Source of the DNA: an uncultured bacterium
GTDB taxonomy: Bacteria; Patescibacteriota; Minisyncoccia; Phycocordibacterales; GWA1-40-21
Assembly (NCBI GenBank): GCA_963804975.1
Contig: CAWDSG010000002.1
Span: forward strand, 405,015 to 469,014
Direction of reading: 5' to 3'
Length of the DNA stretch: 64,000 nucleotides
Shown: positions 2,869 through 58,031 of the stretch, piece by piece
How the letters are laid out: every line of letters begins with the position of its first letter
Position numbering within the stretch: position 1 is the stretch's first letter
Translations under genes and position numbers: made by a program
The notes under the pieces: generated by a model
What the model was told of the DNA's origin: nothing
Databases searched by the model: none
The model's input: the letters and a program-made list of their open reading frames with translations, nothing else

Positions 2869-4755
2869 TTAAGAAATAATTACTTTATTAATAGTCGGAA
2901 CTACTGCCATATCGTTTTTCAAACTCTCAAGAAGAATATTGAGCGGAACAGTTGCAACACAGACATACTTGTCTCCTCCGCCATAATAAATGAATAATTT
3001 TTCATTTTTTACCACAGCTCCGCAAGCATATACTATTCCCGGTTTCCAATCGTTTTCATACCACATATCGGGAGTAAGGATCGGAATGGACAATCTGGCT
3101 ATAATTTTTGTCGGATCATTCAAATCCAGAAGTATTGCGCCGATTTTGTATCTGCCTATTTCCGCGTCGTGAGCATGATAAAGAACAAGCCAGCCGTCTT
3201 TTGTTTTTACCGGAGCTGGACCGATGCTTCTCATACGGATATGCCATGCTATCTGCTTATTTGGCATAGCTTGAGGATCAGGACTTTCAAAATCAACATT
3301 TTCGGTATTCAAAGAATCAATATTTTCAACATATTCAATTAGAACATGGTCCGCTTCATCGGCGTGAAGATTATGAAGAATCGCGTACTTGCCGTTTATT
3401 TTTTCCGGAAACAAAACCCAGTTTTTGTGCCTTCCGATCGGCGAAATAAATTTCATCTCGCTCCATTTCCACACTTTATTGAGAAAATCCTGAACGGATA
3501 TGGAAATCATTCCGACTCTGATATTATCCCAATTATCAAAAGCATTGAATGTTACATAAATCCTATCATCGATCCTGACCATCCGCTGATCTTCGCATCC
3601 GCCCCAGCTTCCGCCGGAAGGATACATCACAGGATCAAATCTTTTTTCCACCGGCCGCAAGCCGAATTTTGAATATTCCAAAGCAAATACGGGATTCGGA
3701 TATATTTCATCAATATGTATTCCGTCCTTTGTTTTTGCATAGCCGATTCTTGAGATGCCGTCTTTTCCCATCGCCCTGAAAAGCAGATGTATTGTTCCGT
3801 CAATATTAACCGCTGTCGGGTTAAGCGTAGCAGCAGAGCTCCACCAGGATTCCGGTTTTGGCCCGATAATCGGATTATTTTTGTTTTTTTTGATTTTATC
3901 GAACGGTTTTAAAATAGATGGCCGGCTGAAAGGTATAAGCATTGAGGAAGAAATGGTGCCTTCTTTTTGCGAATGCCAATATATGGAAACCGTATCGCCA
4001 AAAAACAAGACGCCGATACATTTAAGATCAGATTCATATTTGATTTTCTTTTCAAAAATAGGGAAATCCGACCTCCAGATGACTTTTTTCGGATCAAGCG
4101 GCGAAATCAGCGCAGCGCCAATCTGCAATTTAATATGCTGATCAGCTCTGACGGAAGCGTCATAAAAAACCAAAATTCCTTTTTCGCAAGGTTTTGATGC
4201 AACGAATTTCAAATTGCCATTGTCAAAAAATCCAGGCCTTGATTTCAATATCGGTTCTTTTGCTTTTCCCCATTTTTTCAAATCTCCCGAAAATGCCAGA
4301 TTAATTGACGATTCCCCGTAATATAAAGCGTATTTGCCGCCGGAAAGCTCGGAAACTATTCCTCCTCTTTCCTTTATAGAAAGGTTATCGCTTATAACAG
4401 ACCATTTATTTACACCTCTTGAAATCGCAATAATAAGTTTTTTTGTCTTACCGGTTTTATAAGTAAAAGCAATGAGTTCTTTTTTCCCTATTTTAGATGA
4501 AACAATACTGTCTATTTTTTCCAATTTTATATTTTTCCCTGTTCCGGAATCAATAGTTATATTCTTCCTGATTTTTGAAAAAACAATGGATGATTTCCCT
4601 TTATTTGAAATTAAGAATATTTTTTTCGGATTTTCTTCAGATCTGCAAAAAATGAAGGATTTTTTATCACTGTTCAAAAAACCTACGGGATAAATCTTTT
4701 CTTCTTTTATGGTTTTTTTAATCATTTTAAAATATAAAAAACACAAAAAATGCAC
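2869..4755 (-). CDS. GH130-family glycoside hydrolase/phosphorylase (paralog)
   Basis: NPIIGPKPESWWSSAATLNPTAVNIDGTIHLLFRAMGKDGISRIGYAKTKDG and GCEDQRMVRIDDRIYVTF motifs typical of GH130. Directly adjacent to the first GH130 gene. Confidence 0.75.
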   Translation of the reverse strand: MHFLCFLYFKMIKKTIKEEKIYPVGFLNSDKKSFIFCRSEENPKKIFLISNKGKSSIVFSKIRKNITIDSGTGKNIKLEKIDSIVSSKIGKKELIAFTYKTGKTKKLIIAISRGVNKWSVISDNLSIKERGGIVSELSGGKYALYYGESSINLAFSGDLKKWGKAKEPILKSRPGFFDNGNLKFVASKPCEKGILVFYDASVRADQHIKLQIGAALISPLDPKKVIWRSDFPIFEKKIKYESDLKCIGVLFFGDTVSIYWHSQKEGTISSSMLIPFSRPSILKPFDKIKKNKNNPIIGPKPESWWSSAATLNPTAVNIDGTIHLLFRAMGKDGISRIGYAKTKDGIHIDEIYPNPVFALEYSKFGLRPVEKRFDPVMYPSGGSWGGCEDQRMVRIDDRIYVTFNAFDNWDNIRVGMISISVQDFLNKVWKWSEMKFISPIGRHKNWVLFPEKINGKYAILHNLHADEADHVLIEYVENIDSLNTENVDFESPDPQAMPNKQIAWHIRMRSIGPAPVKTKDGWLVLYHAHDAEIGRYKIGAILLDLNDPTKIIARLSIPILTPDMWYENDWKPGIVYACGAVVKNEKLFIYYGGGDKYVCVATVPLNILLESLKNDMAVVPTINKVIIS

Positions 4756-4854: not shown

Positions 4855-5610
4855 ATGACAAAAAAAGTAATTGTTTTTGATTTGGATGGGACTCTTGCCG
4901 AAAGCAAACAAAATTTGGACAGTGAAATGTCTGCTCTTCTTTACGATCTTTTATACGTTAAAATGGTCGGAATAGTTTCCGGCGGAGGAATGGCACAATT
5001 TCAAAAGCAAGTTATAGACAAACTGCCGCGAGATAACGAAAGATTGAAAAATCTCATTATTTTCCCGACGAAAGGCGCAATGATGTACAAATTTGACGGA
5101 GAAAAATGGAATAAAGTGTATGAAGAAAAATTAAATCCGACGGACAAGAAAAAAATAATAAGCGCTGTTGAAAAAGCAAAAAAAGAAGTTGATTTCCTGC
5201 CGCAAAAAACTTATGGGGATGCTCTGGAAGACAGAGAAACCGAATTTACTTTTTCTGCTTTGGGGCAAGATGCGCCGCTTGAACTGAAGAGAAATTGGGA
5301 TAAGGACGTAGTAAAACGGCAAAAATTAAAAACATTGATTAAGGATTATTTGCCGGAATTTGAAGTGGAAATAGGAGGAAGCACTTCAATAGATATCACA
5401 AAAAAAGGCATAGATAAGGCCTTTGCAATCAGGCAGATTTGCAAATATGAAAATATTGCAATTGACGAGATATTATTCGTTGGAGACGCTTTATTTATCG
5501 GCGGAAACGACAGCTCAGTCAAGAAAACAGGCGTGGACACTATTGCAGTCAAAGATTATAATGAAACAAAAGAAATTATAAAAAATATAATTGAAGGAAA
5601 AATACAATGA
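4855..5610 (+). CDS. phosphomannomutase, eukaryotic-type (HAD-IIB, PMM family)
   Basis: FDLDGTL DxDxT motif, LYVKMVGIVSGGG, C-terminal FVGDALFIGGNDSSV. Matches PMM (PF03332-like) architecture. TATAAT-like box about 12 nt upstream. Confidence 0.7.
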   Translation: MTKKVIVFDLDGTLAESKQNLDSEMSALLYDLLYVKMVGIVSGGGMAQFQKQVIDKLPRDNERLKNLIIFPTKGAMMYKFDGEKWNKVYEEKLNPTDKKKIISAVEKAKKEVDFLPQKTYGDALEDRETEFTFSALGQDAPLELKRNWDKDVVKRQKLKTLIKDYLPEFEVEIGGSTSIDITKKGIDKAFAIRQICKYENIAIDEILFVGDALFIGGNDSSVKKTGVDTIAVKDYNETKEIIKNIIEGKIQ

Positions 5611-5954
5611 AAATCAAATTAGACATGCGGCCGTGGGGAAAAGAAGAATGGTTCATCGCAAAAGAACCGATACGAATGGTAAAAATTCTTACTTTCAAAC
5701 CGAATCAGGAGTGCAGCTTGCAATATCATTATCACAGAAAGGAATTTTGGAGAATTCTGGAAGGCAGTGCAATAGTAACGATCGGAAAGAAAAAAATCAG
5801 AGCGAAAGTCGGCGACAATTTTGAAATCAAGAAAAAACAGATACATAGGATGCAAGGACTTTCAAAAGGAGCTAAAATCCTGGAAATCCATTTCGGAAAA
5901 TTTGACGAAAACGATATCGTGCGGCTGGAAGACGATTACGGCAGAGTGAAATAA
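5607..5954 (+). CDS. cupin-type mannose-6-phosphate isomerase (type II PMI cupin domain)
   Basis: RPWGKEEWF...KILTFKPNQECSLQYHYHRKEFWRILEGSA...VGDNFEIKKKQIHRM is the classic PMI/GMP cupin signature. ATGA overlap with the phosphomannomutase stop. Confidence 0.65.
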   Translation: MKIKLDMRPWGKEEWFIAKEPIRMVKILTFKPNQECSLQYHYHRKEFWRILEGSAIVTIGKKKIRAKVGDNFEIKKKQIHRMQGLSKGAKILEIHFGKFDENDIVRLEDDYGRVK

Positions 5955-11885: not shown

Positions 11886-11922
11886 AAAAAATCATTCTCC
11901 AAACTTGGAGAATGATTTTTTG
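11886..11922. terminator. bidirectional rho-independent terminator hairpin (typA / LysE-family gene)
   Basis: AAAAATCATTCTCCAA-AC-TTGGAGAATGATTTTTT: perfect 12-bp stem with A-run and T-run on either side. Confidence 0.75.
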
Positions 11923-11924
11923 TT

Positions 11925-12524
11925 TTAAAATACGTTTAATAAAGTTTTTATACCTAGTATCATAAGTACAATGGCAAGAATTTTAAAAGTAATGCTTACC
12001 AGATTTTTCTTTTCTAAAACTGGACGGAATTTAAAGAATACAAAAGCCAGCAATGTAGTTGCTAAGAGCCAAGCAATTTCAAATATAAACAGAAAAATGA
12101 ATTTTCCGCCAATAAGAACGCTGTCCAGTATTAAGGCCTTCGGAATTCCCACGGCTATCCAAAAGATCCAATAACCGCTGTTTAGAGCCGTTAAAATTAT
12201 GATCTGATAAAAAGTGAGAATCTGTTTTGATTCGATATTTATTTTTTCTATTTTCCAAACCTTGGAAGCCAGCCAAAAAAGAACGATTGCCCCGCCAATT
12301 GAAATGATCTGTATGGCAATTTTTGACAGACCGATCTTGTAAACAATATAAATGGCCAAAAAAGCGCCGACAGTTTCGGCAATCAGAGCCAAAAAAACAA
12401 TCCTCATTCCCTTTCGGAAACTGCTATTTAAAATCTCAGCAAACGTTCCTGTAAGAATCGGGCCGGGAGTGGCTCCGCCGATCAATCCCAAAAGAAAAGC
12501 TTCAAATAATGAACCTATGACCAT
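11925..12524 (-). CDS. LysE/RhtB-family amino-acid exporter-like membrane protein
   Basis: Multi-TM protein with GPILTGTFAEILNSSFRKG segment resembling LysE translocators. Confidence 0.5.
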   Translation of the reverse strand: MVIGSLFEAFLLGLIGGATPGPILTGTFAEILNSSFRKGMRIVFLALIAETVGAFLAIYIVYKIGLSKIAIQIISIGGAIVLFWLASKVWKIEKINIESKQILTFYQIIILTALNSGYWIFWIAVGIPKALILDSVLIGGKFIFLFIFEIAWLLATTLLAFVFFKFRPVLEKKNLVSITFKILAIVLMILGIKTLLNVF

Positions 12525-12580: not shown

Positions 12581-12614
12581 AAAAATCATTCGCCAAGTTT
12601 GGCGAATGATTTTG
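12581..12614. terminator. terminator hairpin, near-identical paralog of the 11886 hairpin
   Basis: AAAAATCATTCGCCAA-GT-TTGGCGAATGATTTTG. Differs from the 11886 copy by compensatory stem changes (TCTCC/GGAGA to TCGCC/GGCGA). Confidence 0.7.
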
Positions 12615-14693: not shown

Positions 14694-14772
14694 CTCACAT
14701 TCGGTAAAAATTTTAGCTCAAAAACTCGCTTCGCTCAAACAGTTCTCGCTGAAAATTTTTACCGAATGTGAG
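14694..14772. repeat. hairpin-embedded conserved-core element, copy 2: 18-bp IR flanking core GCTCAAAAACTCGCTTCGCTCAAACAGTTCTCGC (reverse orientation)
   Basis: Sits exactly between the convergent stop codons of the exonuclease gene and mltG. Core is identical to the 57934 copy. Confidence 0.8.
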
Positions 14773-24139: not shown

Positions 24140-24215
24140 TGGCCTTATCGTCTAACGGTTAGGACATAGCCTTCTCAAGCGTTAGAATCGGGGTTCGATT
24201 CCCCGTAAGGTCACC
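24140..24215 (+). tRNA. tRNA-Glu(CUC)-like; all arms canonical except a poorly paired anticodon stem (possible pseudo-tRNA or unusual tRNA)
   Basis: Acceptor GGCCTTA/TAAGGTC, D-arm GTCT..GGAC, loop TTCTCAA with U33 and anticodon CTC, T-arm CGGGGTTCGATTCCCCG, encoded CCA. Anticodon stem TAGCC/GCGTT pairs at only 2 of 5 positions. Confidence 0.5.
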
Positions 24216-24239
24216 ATTTCGTGCTAGCACGAGATATAT

Positions 24240-32043: not shown

Positions 32044-32526
32044 TTATTTTACATCAACAACTTTATATTCCATTTTCCCGCTTGGAGAATTAAAAGAAAA
32101 CGATTCGCCTTTCTTTTTGCCGAGCACCGCTGCGCCGATCGGAGATTTGTTTGATATCTTGCCGCCTGACATATTTGACTCGGCCGAACCAACAATCATA
32201 AAAGTTCTTTTTGTTCCCTGGCCGGGCAGGCCGTCATTTTTCTCCACAGTCACCGTGCTGCCTATCATCGCATGGTCGCCGTGCCTGTCTTCCACCACAA
32301 TGGAATTCTTCAATATTGATTCAAGTTTGGAAATCCTCTCTTCTATATCCGCTTGCTGGGCCCGCGCTTCATGATATTCGGCATTTTCCGAAAGATCACC
32401 GAGCCCGCGCGCATAATCAAGCGCTTCGGCAACTTCTTTTCTTTTTACATTCTTAAGTTCTTTGAGCTCGGCTGCCAATTCATCATACTTCTGTTTCGTA
32501 AGATACTCTCTTTGTACATCGGCCAT
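32044..32526 (-). CDS. greA: transcription elongation factor GreA
   Basis: LTKQKYDELAAELKELKNVKRKEVAEALDYARGLGDLSENAEYHEARAQQADIEERISKLE signature. Confidence 0.9.
   Translation of the reverse strand: MADVQREYLTKQKYDELAAELKELKNVKRKEVAEALDYARGLGDLSENAEYHEARAQQADIEERISKLESILKNSIVVEDRHGDHAMIGSTVTVEKNDGLPGQGTKRTFMIVGSAESNMSGGKISNKSPIGAAVLGKKKGESFSFNSPSGKMEYKVVDVK
32217..32230 (-). repeat. GC-rich palindromic element copy (CCTGGCCGGGCAGG), in frame in greA
   Basis: Encodes the extra loop residues GLPGQG, which are absent from E. coli GreA at this position. Confidence 0.65.
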
Positions 32527-32717
32527 CCCAGTTGTAAAATTTTAAAGCTACTAATGTTTATTTTGACCTTTATAATGATTTAAACTCACTCAAACTCTTG
32601 CTTTGTTATTGTCCTATCGGAATTTACAACGGGACAAGTGATATTAGATTTTGTTATATTTATAAACTTGCGCAAATTCTAGCAATTTTAAGGCGGAAAG
32701 TAAAGGATTTTTTATTC
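32527..32717 (-). promoter_or_regulatory. greA promoter/leader module, copy A of a duplicated element (box1 CACTTGTCCCGTTGTAAATTCCGA; box2 AGCTTTAAAATTTTACAACTGGG-ATG)
   Basis: Box2 matches 26/26 and box1 22/23 with the module in front of mrdA. Candidate -35 TTGTCC, 17-nt spacer, -10 GACAAT. Confidence 0.5.
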
Positions 32718-34421
32718 TTATTTCAGATACTCCGGTTTGTTCGCATTCATCCAGTCAAAAACCTGCCTCATCACATAAACGCCTCCGAGAGTATTCGCCG
32801 CCGGGCCTTTTTCCATAACCACGGCAAAAGCGTATTTCGGATTACCATACGGGAAAAATCCTGTCACCCAAGAATTGGTAAATTGGTTATTAACGCCAAG
32901 CTGAGCCGTGCCTGTTTTTGCGGCAATTGCCACATAAGGAACATTGAGGCCGACCGCCACGCCGCCCTCCACATCCATTCTCATGCCGGCGCGCACGATG
33001 TTAAAATAATTTTTGTCAAAATTTAATTGTGTGAAATCATTCGGATTTCCGCCTGAAATTATAGACGGCGCCAAAAGTTTTCCGCTATTTGCAATGCTTG
33101 CAATCGCCCTTGCCATCTGGATCGGAGTGACTTGCCAGCCGTATTGCCCTATCGCCGTATGATACGTGTCACCGATAAGCCAGCTTTCATTATTGAAATT
33201 TTCCGCTTTCCATTCCGGGTTCGGAACAGTGCCGGCGCTGCCATTGAAAAATCCTTCAGGCAAATCTTTTCCAAAACCGAACATATCCATATATTTGTCT
33301 ATCATATTTATGCCGAGGCCTTTCTGGTTTTCATATCCTCCGCCGATTTCATAAAAATAAACGTCTGAAGAAACGGCGATGGCCTGCTCCATATCAACCC
33401 ATCCTTGCGGCCTCCAATCTTTGAATATTGAAGGATGATTCGGATCATACGGATTGGGAACGGAAATTGAACCTGTACTTAAAATCTTGGTTTTCGGATC
33501 AATAATTTTTTCGGAAAGAGCGGCAAGAGCTATAAAAGGTTTTACGATTGAACCCGGCGTGTAGAGGCCGTTGATCGCCCTGTTCAGAAATGGATTGTTT
33601 TTATCGCTAAGAAATCGGTTGATCGCTTTTGTGTTTGTCTTATCGGTCAAAATCTGGGAATCATATTCCGGAAAGCTTGTCATGGCTATTACCTCGCCTG
33701 TGTTTGCATCCATTATGACTCCTGCGCCGCCCGTAAATCCGGTTTGCGCCGTGAGGCCGGCAATAATATTATAAAGCTCGGTTTGTACATCGGAATCTAT
33801 TGAAAGAGTGATATTTTCACCGTCAATCGGCTTTTGTTCAACGCTTTGCGACTCTATATTTCCGTTTGCATCCGTTTCAACGATGCGGAGGCCGTTTGCT
33901 CCGGCAAGCTCTCCATTAAAAAATTTTTCCACCCCGTCCTCGCCGACAAAATCCTCATTATAATAAAAACCGGAATTATCTTTCTGCGGATATTTCAAAT
34001 AACCGACGAGATCGGATAAACCCGGCGCGTCATCGTAAATTCTTAGCGAAAATTCCGGAGTGCTTGAGCCGGCAATGTTCCAAGCGAGTTCTTCGCCGTT
34101 TCTGTCGTAAATAACGCCTCTTTGCGGAAAAAGAATCGTGTATCTGAGCATGTTATTGTTGCTTTTTTCGAGATATTCGCTGCCATGAACCGCCTGCAAT
34201 AAAAAAGATTTGATAAAAAAAAGGCAAAAAATCAAAACACAGAATATGCCGAAAGAAATGAATGTTTTTGAGGAAATTGTTTTTTCAAGCCGCCCTTCAA
34301 ACTGGTTTACGTCGAATTTCGGCAGATTTTCCGAATCCAAAAAAATCTCGTCAGGATCGATATCTTTTATCCTGCTCTCGTACCGATTATTTCTGAATTT
34401 TCTCTTGAATTTATTGAACAT
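32718..34421 (-). CDS. mrdA: penicillin-binding protein 2 (elongation transpeptidase)
   Basis: SxxK (GSIVKP), SSD, KTGTAQ motifs. Follows mreBCD. Confidence 0.85.
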   Translation of the reverse strand: MFNKFKRKFRNNRYESRIKDIDPDEIFLDSENLPKFDVNQFEGRLEKTISSKTFISFGIFCVLIFCLFFIKSFLLQAVHGSEYLEKSNNNMLRYTILFPQRGVIYDRNGEELAWNIAGSSTPEFSLRIYDDAPGLSDLVGYLKYPQKDNSGFYYNEDFVGEDGVEKFFNGELAGANGLRIVETDANGNIESQSVEQKPIDGENITLSIDSDVQTELYNIIAGLTAQTGFTGGAGVIMDANTGEVIAMTSFPEYDSQILTDKTNTKAINRFLSDKNNPFLNRAINGLYTPGSIVKPFIALAALSEKIIDPKTKILSTGSISVPNPYDPNHPSIFKDWRPQGWVDMEQAIAVSSDVYFYEIGGGYENQKGLGINMIDKYMDMFGFGKDLPEGFFNGSAGTVPNPEWKAENFNNESWLIGDTYHTAIGQYGWQVTPIQMARAIASIANSGKLLAPSIISGGNPNDFTQLNFDKNYFNIVRAGMRMDVEGGVAVGLNVPYVAIAAKTGTAQLGVNNQFTNSWVTGFFPYGNPKYAFAVVMEKGPAANTLGGVYVMRQVFDWMNANKPEYLK

Positions 34422-34543
34422 CCCAGTTGTAAAATTTTAAAGCTGTTAATATTTGGTTTTATTTTTATATTAATTTTTAATTTTTCTATATTTTTCTTCG
34501 TCATTATCAGTTCGGAATTTACAACTGGACAAGTGGTTGATTT
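34422..34543 (-). promoter_or_regulatory. mrdA promoter/leader module, copy B of the duplicated element
   Basis: CACTTGTCCAGTTGTAAATTCCGA ... AGCTTTAAAATTTTACAACTGGG-ATG. Box1 and box2 contain 11-nt inverted repeats (CCAGTTGTAAA / TTTACAACTGG). Candidate -10 is TGATAAT. Confidence 0.5.
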
Positions 34544-34807
34544 TTAAATTCGGTAAAATTTTATTATTTTTTTCAATGGGAAAGACAAAATAAATATAAT
34601 GATCGCAAGCGCGGTGAAAACATAATGGAAATGGATTCCCATGAATCCTCCGCCGCCATAGAGGATATCCAGAATGAAAGCCCAGACGATTGATTCAACG
34701 AATATATGGAAAATAAAAATAAACGCGAAAATCAGAAAAAAAGTGAGATATGGCGGAAGAAGAAAAACCGACAGGATAAGTATGCAGTTTGAAAAAATCC
34801 GCGTCAT
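34544..34807 (-). CDS. mreD: rod shape-determining protein MreD-like small membrane protein
   Basis: Position after mreC; about 3 TM segments in 87 aa. Confidence 0.45.
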   Translation of the reverse strand: MTRIFSNCILILSVFLLPPYLTFFLIFAFIFIFHIFVESIVWAFILDILYGGGGFMGIHFHYVFTALAIIIFILSFPLKKIIKFYRI

Positions 34808-45468: not shown

Positions 45469-47400
45469 ATGAAAATTCTGGAAGTTATTCCAATTTCAAA
45501 AGGAATCACAATGGAAACGCTTACGTATTTTACCGGAAGCGATGTTCCCGCTGGTTCCGTGGTAAAAGTTCCGCTCAGGAAAAAAGCGATTTCGGCAATC
45601 GTCCTGTCCGTCAGAGAGGCGGAAATCATGAAGTCGGAAATAAAAAAATCAGCATTTTCGCTGAAAAAAATCGAAAAGATAAAACATTCAAATTTGCTTA
45701 GAAAAGAATTTGTGGAAGCATCGGTGGATACGGCCGAATATTATGCCGGCTTTACCGGAGCTGTACTTGGTTCAATGATTCCTAAGGTTTTTTTCGAAAA
45801 TCTGGACAAGCTTAAAATCCCAAAAAGTGAAGTTTTAGCCGAAACGCCAAAAGCTGCGGAAAAATTCGCCATCCAATCAAATGACGAAGACAGATACGCC
45901 CATTATAAAAGCATTATTCGGGAAGAATTCGCAAAAAACTATTCCGTGTTTTTCTGTCTGCCGACAATTCAGGATATTAAAAAAGCAACTGAGACCTTGA
46001 AAAAAGGAATTGAACATTACACCTTTACGCTTCATGGACTGATGAAAAAGAAAGAAATCATAGAAATTACAAATAAAATCCTCAAAGAAAAACATCCTAT
46101 TTTGATAATCGCCACAGGCGCATTTTTGAGCATTCCAAAAGAAAAAATCGGCACGATAATAATAGACAAGGAAAATTCGCGGGCTTACAAGCAGCAGACA
46201 AGACCATACATTGACATCAGAAATTTCGCTGAAGCATTCGCAAATAAAATAAAAGCAAAAATAATTTTCGGCGACCTGCTTCTGCGCGCAGAAACGATAT
46301 ACCGATACAAAAAAGGAGAGCTGATAGAAATCGCTCCGCTCAAATTCCGTTCGCTCACTACTTCAAATGAAGTGCTTATAGATATGAAGCAAAAAAAGAC
46401 GGGCAAAAATGATGAGAAAGAAACAAAAAAAGACGAATTCAGGATATTCAGTCCGGAGCTTGAGAAAAAAATAAAGGAAAATATCGAGAATAACGAGCAT
46501 ATGTTCATTTTCACCGCAAGGCGAGGCCTTTCCCCTTCCACACTCTGCTCCGATTGCGGAAATATAGTCAAATGCAATTCTTGCGGAGCTCATGTAGTTT
46601 TGCACCTACCTAGCCGGCAGGCAGGTAAAGCGACGGAGAATTTCTTTTTGTGCCACAGATGCGGAGAAAGAAGAAGTGCAAATGAAAAATGCGTAAACTG
46701 CGGAGGATGGAAGCTTGCAACGCTTGGAATCGGCGCAGAACTGATTGAAGAAAAATTGAAGGAAATGTGCCCAAAATGCAAAATCTGGAGATTGGATGCC
46801 GATGTTGCCAAAACCCACAAAAAAGCCGGAGAGATTGCGGAAAAATTTTACAATTCTCCGGAAAGCATTCTGATCGGAACGGAAATGGCGCTTCTTTATC
46901 TTTCAAAAAAAGTTGAAAATTCCGCCGTGGTTTCCATGGATACTTTTTTCTCAATCCCCGATTTCAGGGTAAACGAAAAGGTTCTGAATATTCTGCTGAA
47001 AATACGCGCTATTACGGACAGAAGTCTGATAATACAGACCCGCGACAGCTCGCAGAAAGTTTTCAACTACGCTTTGACCGGGAATTTGATTGACTTCTTC
47101 AAAGATGAAATTGACGATAGGAAAGCTCTCGGCTATCCGCCATTTTCAACTCTCATAAAAATATCCGTTTCAGGTTCCAAAGAAGACGTTTTGAAATCCG
47201 CGGAAGATTTGCAAAAAACTATAGAACCGTACGAAATGGATGTATTCCCCGCGTTTATTCCGCAGAAAAAAGGAAAATGCGGCATAAATGGAATAATAAA
47301 AATCCCAGGAGGAAAATGGCCCGACAAAAATATTTCCGAAAAACTGAAATATCTTCCGATGAATTTCTCCGTGAATGTGGATCCGGATAGTTTATTGTAA
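45469..47400 (+). CDS. priA: primosomal protein N' (PriA) with degenerate helicase motifs
   Basis: N-terminal 3'-binding domain, Cys-rich zinc-binding region (CSDCGN..CNSCGAH..CHRCGE..CVNCGG), RRG and GTEM motifs. Walker A is absent and the DEEH box reads IIIDKENSRAYKQ. ORF track start at 45433; the Met at 45469 is more likely. Confidence 0.8.
   Translation: MKILEVIPISKGITMETLTYFTGSDVPAGSVVKVPLRKKAISAIVLSVREAEIMKSEIKKSAFSLKKIEKIKHSNLLRKEFVEASVDTAEYYAGFTGAVLGSMIPKVFFENLDKLKIPKSEVLAETPKAAEKFAIQSNDEDRYAHYKSIIREEFAKNYSVFFCLPTIQDIKKATETLKKGIEHYTFTLHGLMKKKEIIEITNKILKEKHPILIIATGAFLSIPKEKIGTIIIDKENSRAYKQQTRPYIDIRNFAEAFANKIKAKIIFGDLLLRAETIYRYKKGELIEIAPLKFRSLTTSNEVLIDMKQKKTGKNDEKETKKDEFRIFSPELEKKIKENIENNEHMFIFTARRGLSPSTLCSDCGNIVKCNSCGAHVVLHLPSRQAGKATENFFLCHRCGERRSANEKCVNCGGWKLATLGIGAELIEEKLKEMCPKCKIWRLDADVAKTHKKAGEIAEKFYNSPESILIGTEMALLYLSKKVENSAVVSMDTFFSIPDFRVNEKVLNILLKIRAITDRSLIIQTRDSSQKVFNYALTGNLIDFFKDEIDDRKALGYPPFSTLIKISVSGSKEDVLKSAEDLQKTIEPYEMDVFPAFIPQKKGKCGINGIIKIPGGKWPDKNISEKLKYLPMNFSVNVDPDSLL
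46605..46626 (+). repeat. GC-rich palindromic element copy (CCTACCTAGCCGGCAGGCAGGT), in frame in priA between zinc-finger cysteines
   Basis: Encodes HLPSRQAGKA. Confidence 0.6.
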
Positions 47401-47403
47401 AAA

Positions 47404-47476
47404 AACAAGCGCAATTAAAAAAATTCTCCGAGAACTGTTTGAACGAAGTGAGTTTTCGAGGAGAAATTTTTTAATT
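47404..47476. repeat. hairpin-embedded conserved-core element, copy 5 (22-bp IR around core GAGAACTGTTTGAACGAAGTGAGTTTTCGAG)
   Basis: AACAAGCGCAATTAAAAAAATT ... AATTTTTTAATTGCGCTTGTT, between the convergent priA and ftsQ stops. Confidence 0.8.
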
Positions 47477-47493
47477 GCGCTTGTTTATATTAA

Positions 47494-48345
47494 TTAATTT
47501 TTACACACTGCAGCAGGACTGCATACAACCCTGTTTCCGTAACGCAAATCAACATAATTTATTTTTGCAAGCGATGCTTTGTCCATTTTGATAAATCCGT
47601 CATTTACAAGCGCCTGCAAATTTATCAATGATTGTCCGAATGTTTTTTCGTCATTGAGCAAAATCTTGCCTCCATTTTGCAAATAAACTTGATATGTATG
47701 AGCATCAACCGCATAAAAATACTCCGGATAAAAATCAAGCTGGCTCAAAGCTCCGATAAAAGCTGAGATTTCGGCAAATCTATGGCTGTCAAAATAAAAT
47801 TCTCCTATCGGATTTTGATTCGTTATCATGCCGAAATATTCAGGAAACGCGCTTATCACCGTTGAACTTGCAAACACAAAACCTGTCTTATCCATCAGAA
47901 AACAATTTCCCGGCACATCCGGAGTGCCTCCGCACCAATGATTTTGGGCAACCCGCTCGGACACTTTAATTTCTATATCATTTAAATTTTTGAATGATAT
48001 TTTTACCGAATTTATTGTTTTTATATCGCTCAAAATCTGATTTTTAATATCATTTCTTTCCAAAAGCAAATAATTATCTGTCGGAATAATCAGCAGATAT
48101 CTTTTGTTAAGCTCCGCATTCACAATCGCCGAAATTTCACTGCTTGATACGGATGAATTGCCGGCAATGGAAACATTCCGTATCCGCACCTTATCCGAGG
48201 TAAGTCCGAGAATGCACAGCGAAATGAGAAATAAAATATAAAGAGCCGAGAGGCCGATTTTTCTTATGCGGCTCAATCTCCTCTTTTTCCTCAAGGATTG
48301 GTTTATATTTGATCGCTGCTGCATAGCGAATTTATTTCTTTCCAA
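47494..48345 (-). CDS. ftsQ: FtsQ/DivIB-like cell division protein (POTRA domain)
   Basis: N-terminal basic region plus TM, POTRA-like segment; typical bitopic layout. Confidence 0.5.
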   Translation of the reverse strand: MERNKFAMQQRSNINQSLRKKRRLSRIRKIGLSALYILFLISLCILGLTSDKVRIRNVSIAGNSSVSSSEISAIVNAELNKRYLLIIPTDNYLLLERNDIKNQILSDIKTINSVKISFKNLNDIEIKVSERVAQNHWCGGTPDVPGNCFLMDKTGFVFASSTVISAFPEYFGMITNQNPIGEFYFDSHRFAEISAFIGALSQLDFYPEYFYAVDAHTYQVYLQNGGKILLNDEKTFGQSLINLQALVNDGFIKMDKASLAKINYVDLRYGNRVVCSPAAVCKN

Positions 48346-57933: not shown

Positions 57934-58013
57934 AAAGGGCGGCATGGCGCAAAAATTTTCTTCGAGAACTGTTTGAGCGAAGCGAGTTTTTGAGAAGATA
58001 ATTTTTATGCCAT
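57934..58013. repeat. hairpin-embedded conserved-core element, copy 6 (20-bp IR AGGGCGGCATGGCGCAAAAATT around core CGAGAACTGTTTGAGCGAAGCGAGTTTTTGAG)
   Basis: Between rpmG and tRNA-Trp. Confidence 0.8.
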
Positions 58014-58031
58014 GCCGCCCTTACCCCGTTT

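Follow-up and report, generated by a model that had tools for sequence, protein, structure and literature searches.

The two identical sequence boxes found upstream of greA and of mrdA are the ends of a 113-nt unit, one copy of which precedes each of the two genes in the window, as we call here the whole 64,000-nt stretch of DNA analysed. Copies of the same unit lie directly against the start codons of unrelated genes in other genomes, and they are probably mobile, transcribed leader elements that abut the start codon and act through a terminal RNA helix. The first-pass annotation of this locus had taken the boxes for a duplicated regulatory module with a promoter; its observation is confirmed, while its interpretation mostly fails.

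The two copies in the mreB-lysS gene cluster

The 26-mer AGCTTTAAAATTTTACAACTGGGATG, made of 23 nt plus the ATG, is found at exactly two sites in the 64 kb (32524-32549 and 34419-34444), and the 24-mer CACTTGTCCNGTTGTAAATTCCGA is likewise found at exactly two (32617-32640 and 34512-34535); shuffled sequences are expected to contain neither (0 in each case). Copies A and B thus have in common a 24-nt 5' box (box 1) and a 23-nt 3' box plus ATG (box 2), at an offset of 93 nt in both, and they are of equal length (113 nt; Table 1). Both boxes had been correctly described before, as had an 11-nt inverted repeat, which is perfect in copy B and carries one mismatch in copy A. The duplicated unit also ends at the ATG, as had been proposed, but it had been drawn too long, across the whole mrdA-greA spacer. 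The segment between the boxes had been called unrelated, which holds only in the sense that the copies are not recent mutual duplicates: the 67-nt interior has the same length in both copies, aligns without gaps and is ~60% identical, the level of any two family members. A recent duplication of A from B is rejected, as their interior identity ranks 469th among 741 family pairs. Over 117 nt the two copies align ungapped with 76% identity, and against the covariance model of the element family copy A scores 105 bits and copy B 95 bits. Copy B begins 9 nt past the mreD stop codon and finishes at the mrdA ATG.

Table 1. Genes, element copies and associated motifs of the locus, in window coordinates
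Feature	Position	Strand	Description
mreB-mreC-mreD-mrdA-greA-lysS		minus	Gene order in the window, all on one strand
greA	32044-32526	minus	160 aa; GreA_GreB_N and GreA_GreB domains
mrdA (PBP2)	32718-34421	minus	567 aa; PBP_dimer and Transpeptidase domains
mreD	34544-34807	minus	
Element copy A	32527-32639	minus	113 nt, ACTTGTCCC...CAACTGGG; between ancestral greA leader and greA ATG
Element copy B	34422-34534	minus	113 nt; fills the mreD-mrdA intergenic space
Copy A predicted terminal helix, 5' strand	32623-32635	minus	GUCCCGUUGUAAA; RNAfold, RNAalifold
Copy A predicted terminal helix, 3' strand	32525-32538	minus	UUUACAAC-U-GGGAU; includes A and U of the greA AUG; one bulged U
Copy B predicted terminal helix, 5' strand	34518-34530	minus	C-to-A removes the bulge, giving a contiguous 12-bp helix
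Copy B predicted terminal helix, 3' strand	34420-34433	minus	Adjoins and overlaps the mrdA AUG
Ancestral greA promoter	32676-32704	minus	TTTACT-17-TGcTAGAAT; 36 nt upstream of copy A
Promoter-like match in copy B	34503-34532	minus	TTGTCC-18-GATAAT; 9/12 match; not conserved in the family

The copies are not an assembly artefact, because the identical sequence is present in a Logan assembly (L001, L002) of this organism made from an independent data set. The Logan contigs are interrupted inside copy A, with L001 beginning in the 3' box and L002 finishing near that box, as would fit a repeat that splits the assembly graph.

The window also holds other short repeats. A second family of ~55 nt has three copies with 82-87% identity (14706-14761, 47416-47473 and 57951-58007), two of which sit inside larger hairpins (47392-47497 and 57935-58022); they may represent terminators or a further interspersed palindromic element. 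Near-identical 33-nt palindromes, AAAAATCATTCTCCAAACTTGGAGAATGATTTT, lie at 11887-11919 and 12581-12613, on both sides of an ORF at 11925-12524. In addition, ARAGORN predicts at 24141-24216 (+) a tRNA with a four-base anticodon 'ctca' and an apparent 8-nt anticodon loop, which scores 45 bits against the Rfam tRNA model and may be unusual or suppressor-like.

An element family inserted directly 5' of start codons

A search with an exact 20-mer from box 2 returned nine GTDB species-representative genomes, namely Patescibacteria/'Saccharibacteria' MAGs and a single MAG with the label Nanoarchaeota. Each of the nine has box 1 ~93 nt upstream and an ATG directly after box 2, but the genes downstream are different. 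In metagenomes, an exact 19-mer from box 1 matched 41 contigs, with ~32 complete modules. The remaining matches, which are without box 2, are due to chance; in L037 and L042, for example, a 23-nt match to box 1 is coding sequence of an SDR gene. Every genuine box 1 found elsewhere is paired with a box 2, so that the independent occurrence of the two boxes, which the first-pass annotation had named as weakening a single module, was not observed. The combined searches give 39 unique copies of 111-116 nt (length sd 2.0), 38 of which are in sense orientation and end in ...CTGGG immediately followed by ATG. Copies can be dense, with two in the 64-kb window, four in 13 kb (L016) and three in 14 kb (L064). 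Neither box was found in viral contigs. The homologues of the window PBP2 come from sources with names such as Paceibacterota, Minisyncoccia and Parcubacteria.

The genes downstream of the copies are ~25 unrelated housekeeping genes. They include rpsU (in five genomes), rpsB, leuS, greA, mrdA, murG, murJ, rmlB and lepB, as well as genes for a prepilin peptidase, pilB-like ATPases, YraN, PrsW-like and dprA-like proteins, and mgtC. Such a range speaks against the proposal that a shared regulator couples greA to mrdA in one regulon. Co-control of the two genes is further contradicted by relatives with 77-78% identical PBP2, in which the mreBCD-mrdA-greA-lysS order is kept and the element is missing at both sites; the mreD-mrdA gap of these element-less relatives measures 33 nt (L053) or 12 nt (L054), and the mrdA-greA gap 26 nt (L054). 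The regulon reading is thus largely refuted.

Comparison of filled with empty sites reveals the geometry of the insertion. At greA, the empty site of L053 reads AAAATCAATATC straight into the ATG, whereas in the window AAAATCTAATATC is followed by ACTTGTCCC...CTGGG and only then by the ATG. The promoter of greA has its equivalent in the element-less relatives L053, L054 and L056. At rpsU, sites are empty in L058, L062, L064, L066 and L068 and filled in L005 and L043; the empty form, TTGCxT-N17-TGtTAATAT-N8-10-ATG (L058, L060, L066, L068), corresponds in the two filled sites to an identical promoter and 9-nt spacer, then the element, then the ATG. At greA, mrdA and rpsU alike, three independent sites with the same geometry, what distinguishes the filled site from the empty one is a clean insertion immediately 5' of the ATG, and no target duplication is seen for this canonical family in the comparison. 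All canonical copies, those of the window included, begin with the constant pentamer ACTTG, within which U4-G5-U6 of the RNA is predicted to be able to pair with AUG.

Divergent, younger subfamilies do show duplications. Five of their copies are surrounded by perfect 5-bp direct repeats (ATGAA twice, ATGGA, GTGAA and ATAGG), three of them with a -10-like hexamer 7 nt ahead of the 5' direct repeat, and the L064 and L009 subfamilies possess perfect inverted repeats of 13-15 nt. The 5-bp repeats look like the target duplication of a leaderless start and suggest a target preference that contains the ATG. Short ORFs do run from the 5' ATG of some young copies; their length is unconserved and the canonical family has none, so that a leader peptide was discarded as an explanation. 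The family, which is interspersed in genomes of Paceibacteria/Patescibacteria, is part of a wider MITE-like superfamily with a TCCCGT...ACGGGA core, a few members of which do not adjoin an ATG (L039b, L029b, L014b and L016 212-326). The last of these, on the plus strand, is a related-looking inverted-repeat element, GGACCCCGTTAAAAGTC...GACTTTGTACGGGGTC, that abuts no ATG and is followed by a second partial left end.

These features are the ones by which MITEs are recognized: a length of 111-116 nt, the absence of a conserved ORF, ends formed by imperfect inverted repeats of 11-15 nt, and multiple interspersed copies with filled/empty-site polymorphism. It is conceivable, if rather unlikely, that nothing more is involved than a selfish MITE, whose conserved ends are terminal inverted repeats (TIRs) bound by a transposase, whose RNA helix is incidental, and whose position against the ATG reflects an RTGRA-like target preference together with the loss of harmful insertions. 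The inverted-repeat ends, the small size without an ORF, the filled and empty sites, the several copies per 13-14 kb and the 5-bp duplications of the young subfamilies all agree with it. Against it, no target duplication accompanies the canonical copies, nor was an autonomous partner IS detected among inverted-repeat pairs 170-4000 bp apart in ~570 kb of sequence; further objections come from the conservation of the transcribed unit (see below).

Searched against Rfam 15 at E<=10, neither the window region nor L009 nor the structured copies of L064 gave a relevant match, and no ribozyme family matched in the region or in the structured subfamilies. A ribozyme or riboswitch core was rejected for the canonical copies, the interior of which is unconserved. 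In the literature searched on leaderless genes, MITEs and conserved intergenic motifs of Patescibacteria, no description of the element was found, and the family has apparently been undescribed until now.

The predicted terminal helix and the probable transcription of the element

The best-supported feature of the element is the long-range pairing of its boxes, which the first-pass annotation had already raised as an option. All 39 copies are predicted to close by a terminal helix with a mean pair probability of ~0.94. In this helix, G5-A17 would pair with U-U-U-A-C-A-A-C-(U)-G-G-G-A-U, forming 13 bp with one bulged U, so that the A and U of the AUG are themselves paired. Within the canonical family the helix is invariant and hence uninformative about covariation; several variants, among them a CU-to-UC swap (L019), a C-to-U change giving G.U (L017, L031) and the loss of the bulge in window copy B, keep the pairing. 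A canonical copy at L008 1104-1238 (+) carries inside its 5' arm a 17-nt self-complementary insertion, CCTGCCTGCGCAGTCAG, which is predicted to fold into its own hairpin at the helix bulge and to leave the terminal helix intact within a three-way junction. On the other hand, the top of the helix is weakened without compensation in L034, L052, L039 and L016b, and the folding energy of the whole element is unremarkable (z -0.3 to -2.0).

A family covariance model (R1, then R2) was used to find the divergent subfamilies, which keep TCCCGT...GGGATG and have the helix altered on both strands. Their 5' and 3' strands read GUUAGAAAU with AUUUCUAAU, GUUAGAGAU with AUCUCUAAC, GUACGAAAUAG with CUAUUUCGUAC, and GUGUGAAAUU with AAUUUC..UUUAC. 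In the combined subfamily alignment, 4 of the 13 pairs are altered in both partners (18 cells), and the covariation score was reached by none of 500 shuffles; this covariation is between subfamilies only and comes from a model-fitted alignment of related sequences. In L064 an internal hairpin is also swapped for an unrelated hairpin at the same position. A concerted change of the two arms between subfamilies is likewise expected of co-evolving TIRs, as transposase-bound terminal inverted repeats would covary just as helix arms do, and this evidence sits equally well with a selfish MITE. A structured-looking leader of another kind precedes rpsA (ribosomal protein S1) in relatives, where a conserved CAAGGTTGCGCAAAAAGCTAACCTC...AAACTTTTTG is followed by a terminator-like hairpin (L059 ~50-245, L062 ~5450-5644, L066 ~4980-5074 and L068 ~3630-3823); it is distinct from the start-codon element.

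The promoters lie outside the element. A strict extended -10 (TGnTAnnnT) ends 5-40 nt upstream of it in 19 of the 39 copies, with 1.8 expected, and in 12 of these 19 it ends 8-13 nt upstream, which puts the predicted transcription start 1-6 nt before the element. Most other copies start 2-9 nt past the stop codon of a co-oriented gene, like copy B after mreD. Since every context provides an upstream promoter or an operon position, both arms should be in the mRNA, and the arrangement of these sequences makes it very likely that the element is transcribed as part of it.

The first-pass annotation had instead placed a promoter within box 1. The TTGTCC...GAYAAT match is indeed present, with a spacer of 18 nt and not 17; TTGTCC is conserved in the family, but the -10 position has a low information content, the hexamer there often being a poor one. 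Because free-standing copies have an extended -10 just upstream, box 1 is not the family promoter; greA keeps its ancestral promoter upstream of copy A. An internal sigma-70 promoter at a fixed interior position was also considered and gave no positional signal. In the two window copies, TTGTCC-18-GAYAAT may act as a secondary promoter.

It is very improbable that the boxes combine a sigma-70 promoter (TTGTCC/GAYAAT) with an operator pair for one regulator, possibly through looping of 93 bp of DNA, to co-control greA and mrdA. In both window copies no other sequence matches sigma-70 better, the 93-bp spacing amounts to ~9 helical turns, the conservation of the arms goes beyond pairing, and two palindromes, AAGCTT and TAAAATTTTA, occur in box 2. 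However, the -10 is unconserved and the real promoters lie upstream, the downstream genes are functionally unrelated and near relatives are without the module at both genes; moreover, the L008 insertion would break an operator, and the CU-to-UC swap and G.U changes fit pairing, not a protein site. It is scarcely credible that the inverted repeats flank a promoter-bearing segment flipped by a recombinase. They do surround ~90 bp of AT-rich DNA directly upstream of genes, but the interior has a single orientation in all ~49 assembled copies, the segment is very short for synapsis, the genes downstream are essential housekeeping genes, and no adjacent recombinase appears in the gene tables.

Selection appears to act on the arms. 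In orthologous pairs, the arm not used for finding the copy is 0.74-0.97 identical, similar to the 0.81-0.95 of codon positions 1+2 and above the 0.45-0.78 of position 3, and the interior is no more similar than that of random family pairs. On the sense strand of the interior, A accounts for 52% and T for 29%, compared with 35% and 36% in other upstream regions. Length, sense orientation, A-richness and arm conservation fit a constraint on the transcript better than the neutral decay of a dead transposon. This is where the selfish-MITE account is most strained: a dead insertion should decay evenly, yet the arms are kept at orthologous sites while the interior saturates, the length is constrained, the sense orientation is strict, the sense strand favours A over T, and the L008 copy is retained although a hairpin insertion splits its 5' arm. 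The arms are also conserved beyond the needs of pairing, in the unpaired ACUUG, UUACGAG and AGCUUUAAAAU, which points to a reader, be it a protein or an RNA, and fits recognition at the DNA level just as well.

No SD-like motif precedes any of the 48 window ORFs (~5% expected at random), and in 18 of them the start codon follows the end of a TAnnnT hexamer at 5-9 nt, typically as TATAAT-N6-ATG, against ~9% at random. Translation in this organism should therefore be SD-independent and largely leaderless, so that any insertion between promoter and ATG would be costly; in this setting, a structure that juxtaposes the 5' boundary and the AUG is a plausible reason why the insertions are tolerated or useful.

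The mechanism most consistent with these data would run as follows. A canonical copy is oriented in sense, its last G abutting the A of the gene's ATG, and would be transcribed from a pre-existing promoter a few nt upstream or by operon read-through. The ends of its RNA would then pair, GUCCC-GUUGUAAA with UUUACAAC-U-GGGAU, looping out the A-rich and otherwise unconstrained interior; the helix so formed would have 13 bp, and the start codon would lie at its base, the A and U being paired. Such pairing would bring the 5' edge of the unit, that is, the transcription start or the upstream stop codon, next to the AUG, and the element would most likely serve as a portable leader acting in cis, by which translation initiation is set or gated. 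We infer that the helix forms in vivo and that its effect is on translation rather than on stability or processing; the way in which the canonical family reaches the ATG without target duplication is inferred as well.

An effect on processing would take the form of RNA punctuation, in which an endonuclease such as RNase III cuts at or near the helix base, so that the cistron downstream is released with its 5' end at the AUG or within a few nt of it, recreating a leaderless mRNA. We consider this improbable. The SD-less, largely leaderless genome, the exact coincidence of the helix base with the AUG, and the location of elements both after formerly near-leaderless promoters (as in the empty rpsU site, with its -10, N8-10 and ATG) and between cistrons (mreD/mrdA) are in its favour, and RNase III is known to remove rRNA intervening sequences of similar size. 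However, a bulged helix of 13 bp is short for RNase III, there is no match to a ribozyme or other Rfam family, and we know of no RNase that cuts exactly at a helix base to leave the AUG. A related proposal, to which we give little credence as well, is that of a transposon neutralising its own effect at the RNA level: once inserted at the start codon of a leaderless or tightly coupled gene, it would have its AUG-containing helix either recognised and cut or bypassed by the ribosome. If true, the self-neutralising element would restore a 5'-AUG mRNA or stop-start proximity, and this would amount to a bacterial 'mRNA punctuation' specific to SD-less CPR bacteria and comparable in its effect to mitochondrial tRNA punctuation.

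Implications and relation to known systems

To our knowledge, almost nothing has been established experimentally about gene expression in bacteria of the candidate phyla radiation. If the reading of the element as an RNA leader is true, it would make translation initiation and the expression of operons in uncultivated Paceibacteria accessible to study, with ~50 natural variants and matched filled and empty sites, and would be a case of a transposable element that has been kept, and possibly recruited, to serve as a module of gene expression. At a practical level, the element accounts for odd gaps of 110-190 nt in operons that are compact otherwise, and some contig breaks in assemblies may be partly due to it; masking or annotating it is advisable to avoid misreading it as gene-specific regulation.

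Some resemblances to known sites were dismissed. The motif order is reversed relative to integron attC (GTT...AAC), and the genes flanking the element are syntenic core genes; comparison with attC, dif, sigma-54/UAS and TyrR-box motifs showed that order or spacing does not fit.

ERIC sequences are more conserved across species than neutral DNA and affect the stability of flanking mRNA. Like the element, ERIC/IRU, RUP, BOX and other MITE-like repeats (PMC10969869, PMC3049150) are short imperfect palindromes, and they are found in transcribed intergenic DNA, but no systematic abutment of start codons is reported for any of them, and their sequences are unrelated to it. The term 'start codon' is absent from a 2024 review of MITEs. 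Putative mobile promoters (PMC3488235, PMC3575422) share with the element the occurrence of homologous upstream regions before non-homologous genes, within and between genomes; here, in contrast, the propagated unit is most likely the leader, and the promoters stay outside. In translational riboswitches and thermometers, as is predicted here, a helix that closes over a long range covers the initiation site with its 3' strand, while the canonical family is mobile, has no conserved ligand-binding core and has no common theme among its downstream genes.

Among known systems, the CREE/NEMIS of Neisseria (PMC2649163; reviewed in PMC2229807) resemble the element in being non-coding, ~100-150 bp long, bounded by terminal inverted repeats, interspersed and polymorphic in insertion between strains. 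They are co-transcribed with their neighbours, the RNA hairpin of their repeats is the functional unit, and they can influence the expression of adjacent genes; Correia repeat-enclosed elements are in addition RNase III substrates (PMC2649163). CREE differ from the element in inserting at TA with TA duplication, in either orientation and at variable distances from genes, and in carrying promoter and IHF motifs. The element, unlike CREE, is fixed in the sense orientation and has its last base next to the ATG, the AUG inside the predicted helix and an unconserved interior; it shows no target duplication in its canonical copies and resides in an SD-less CPR host.
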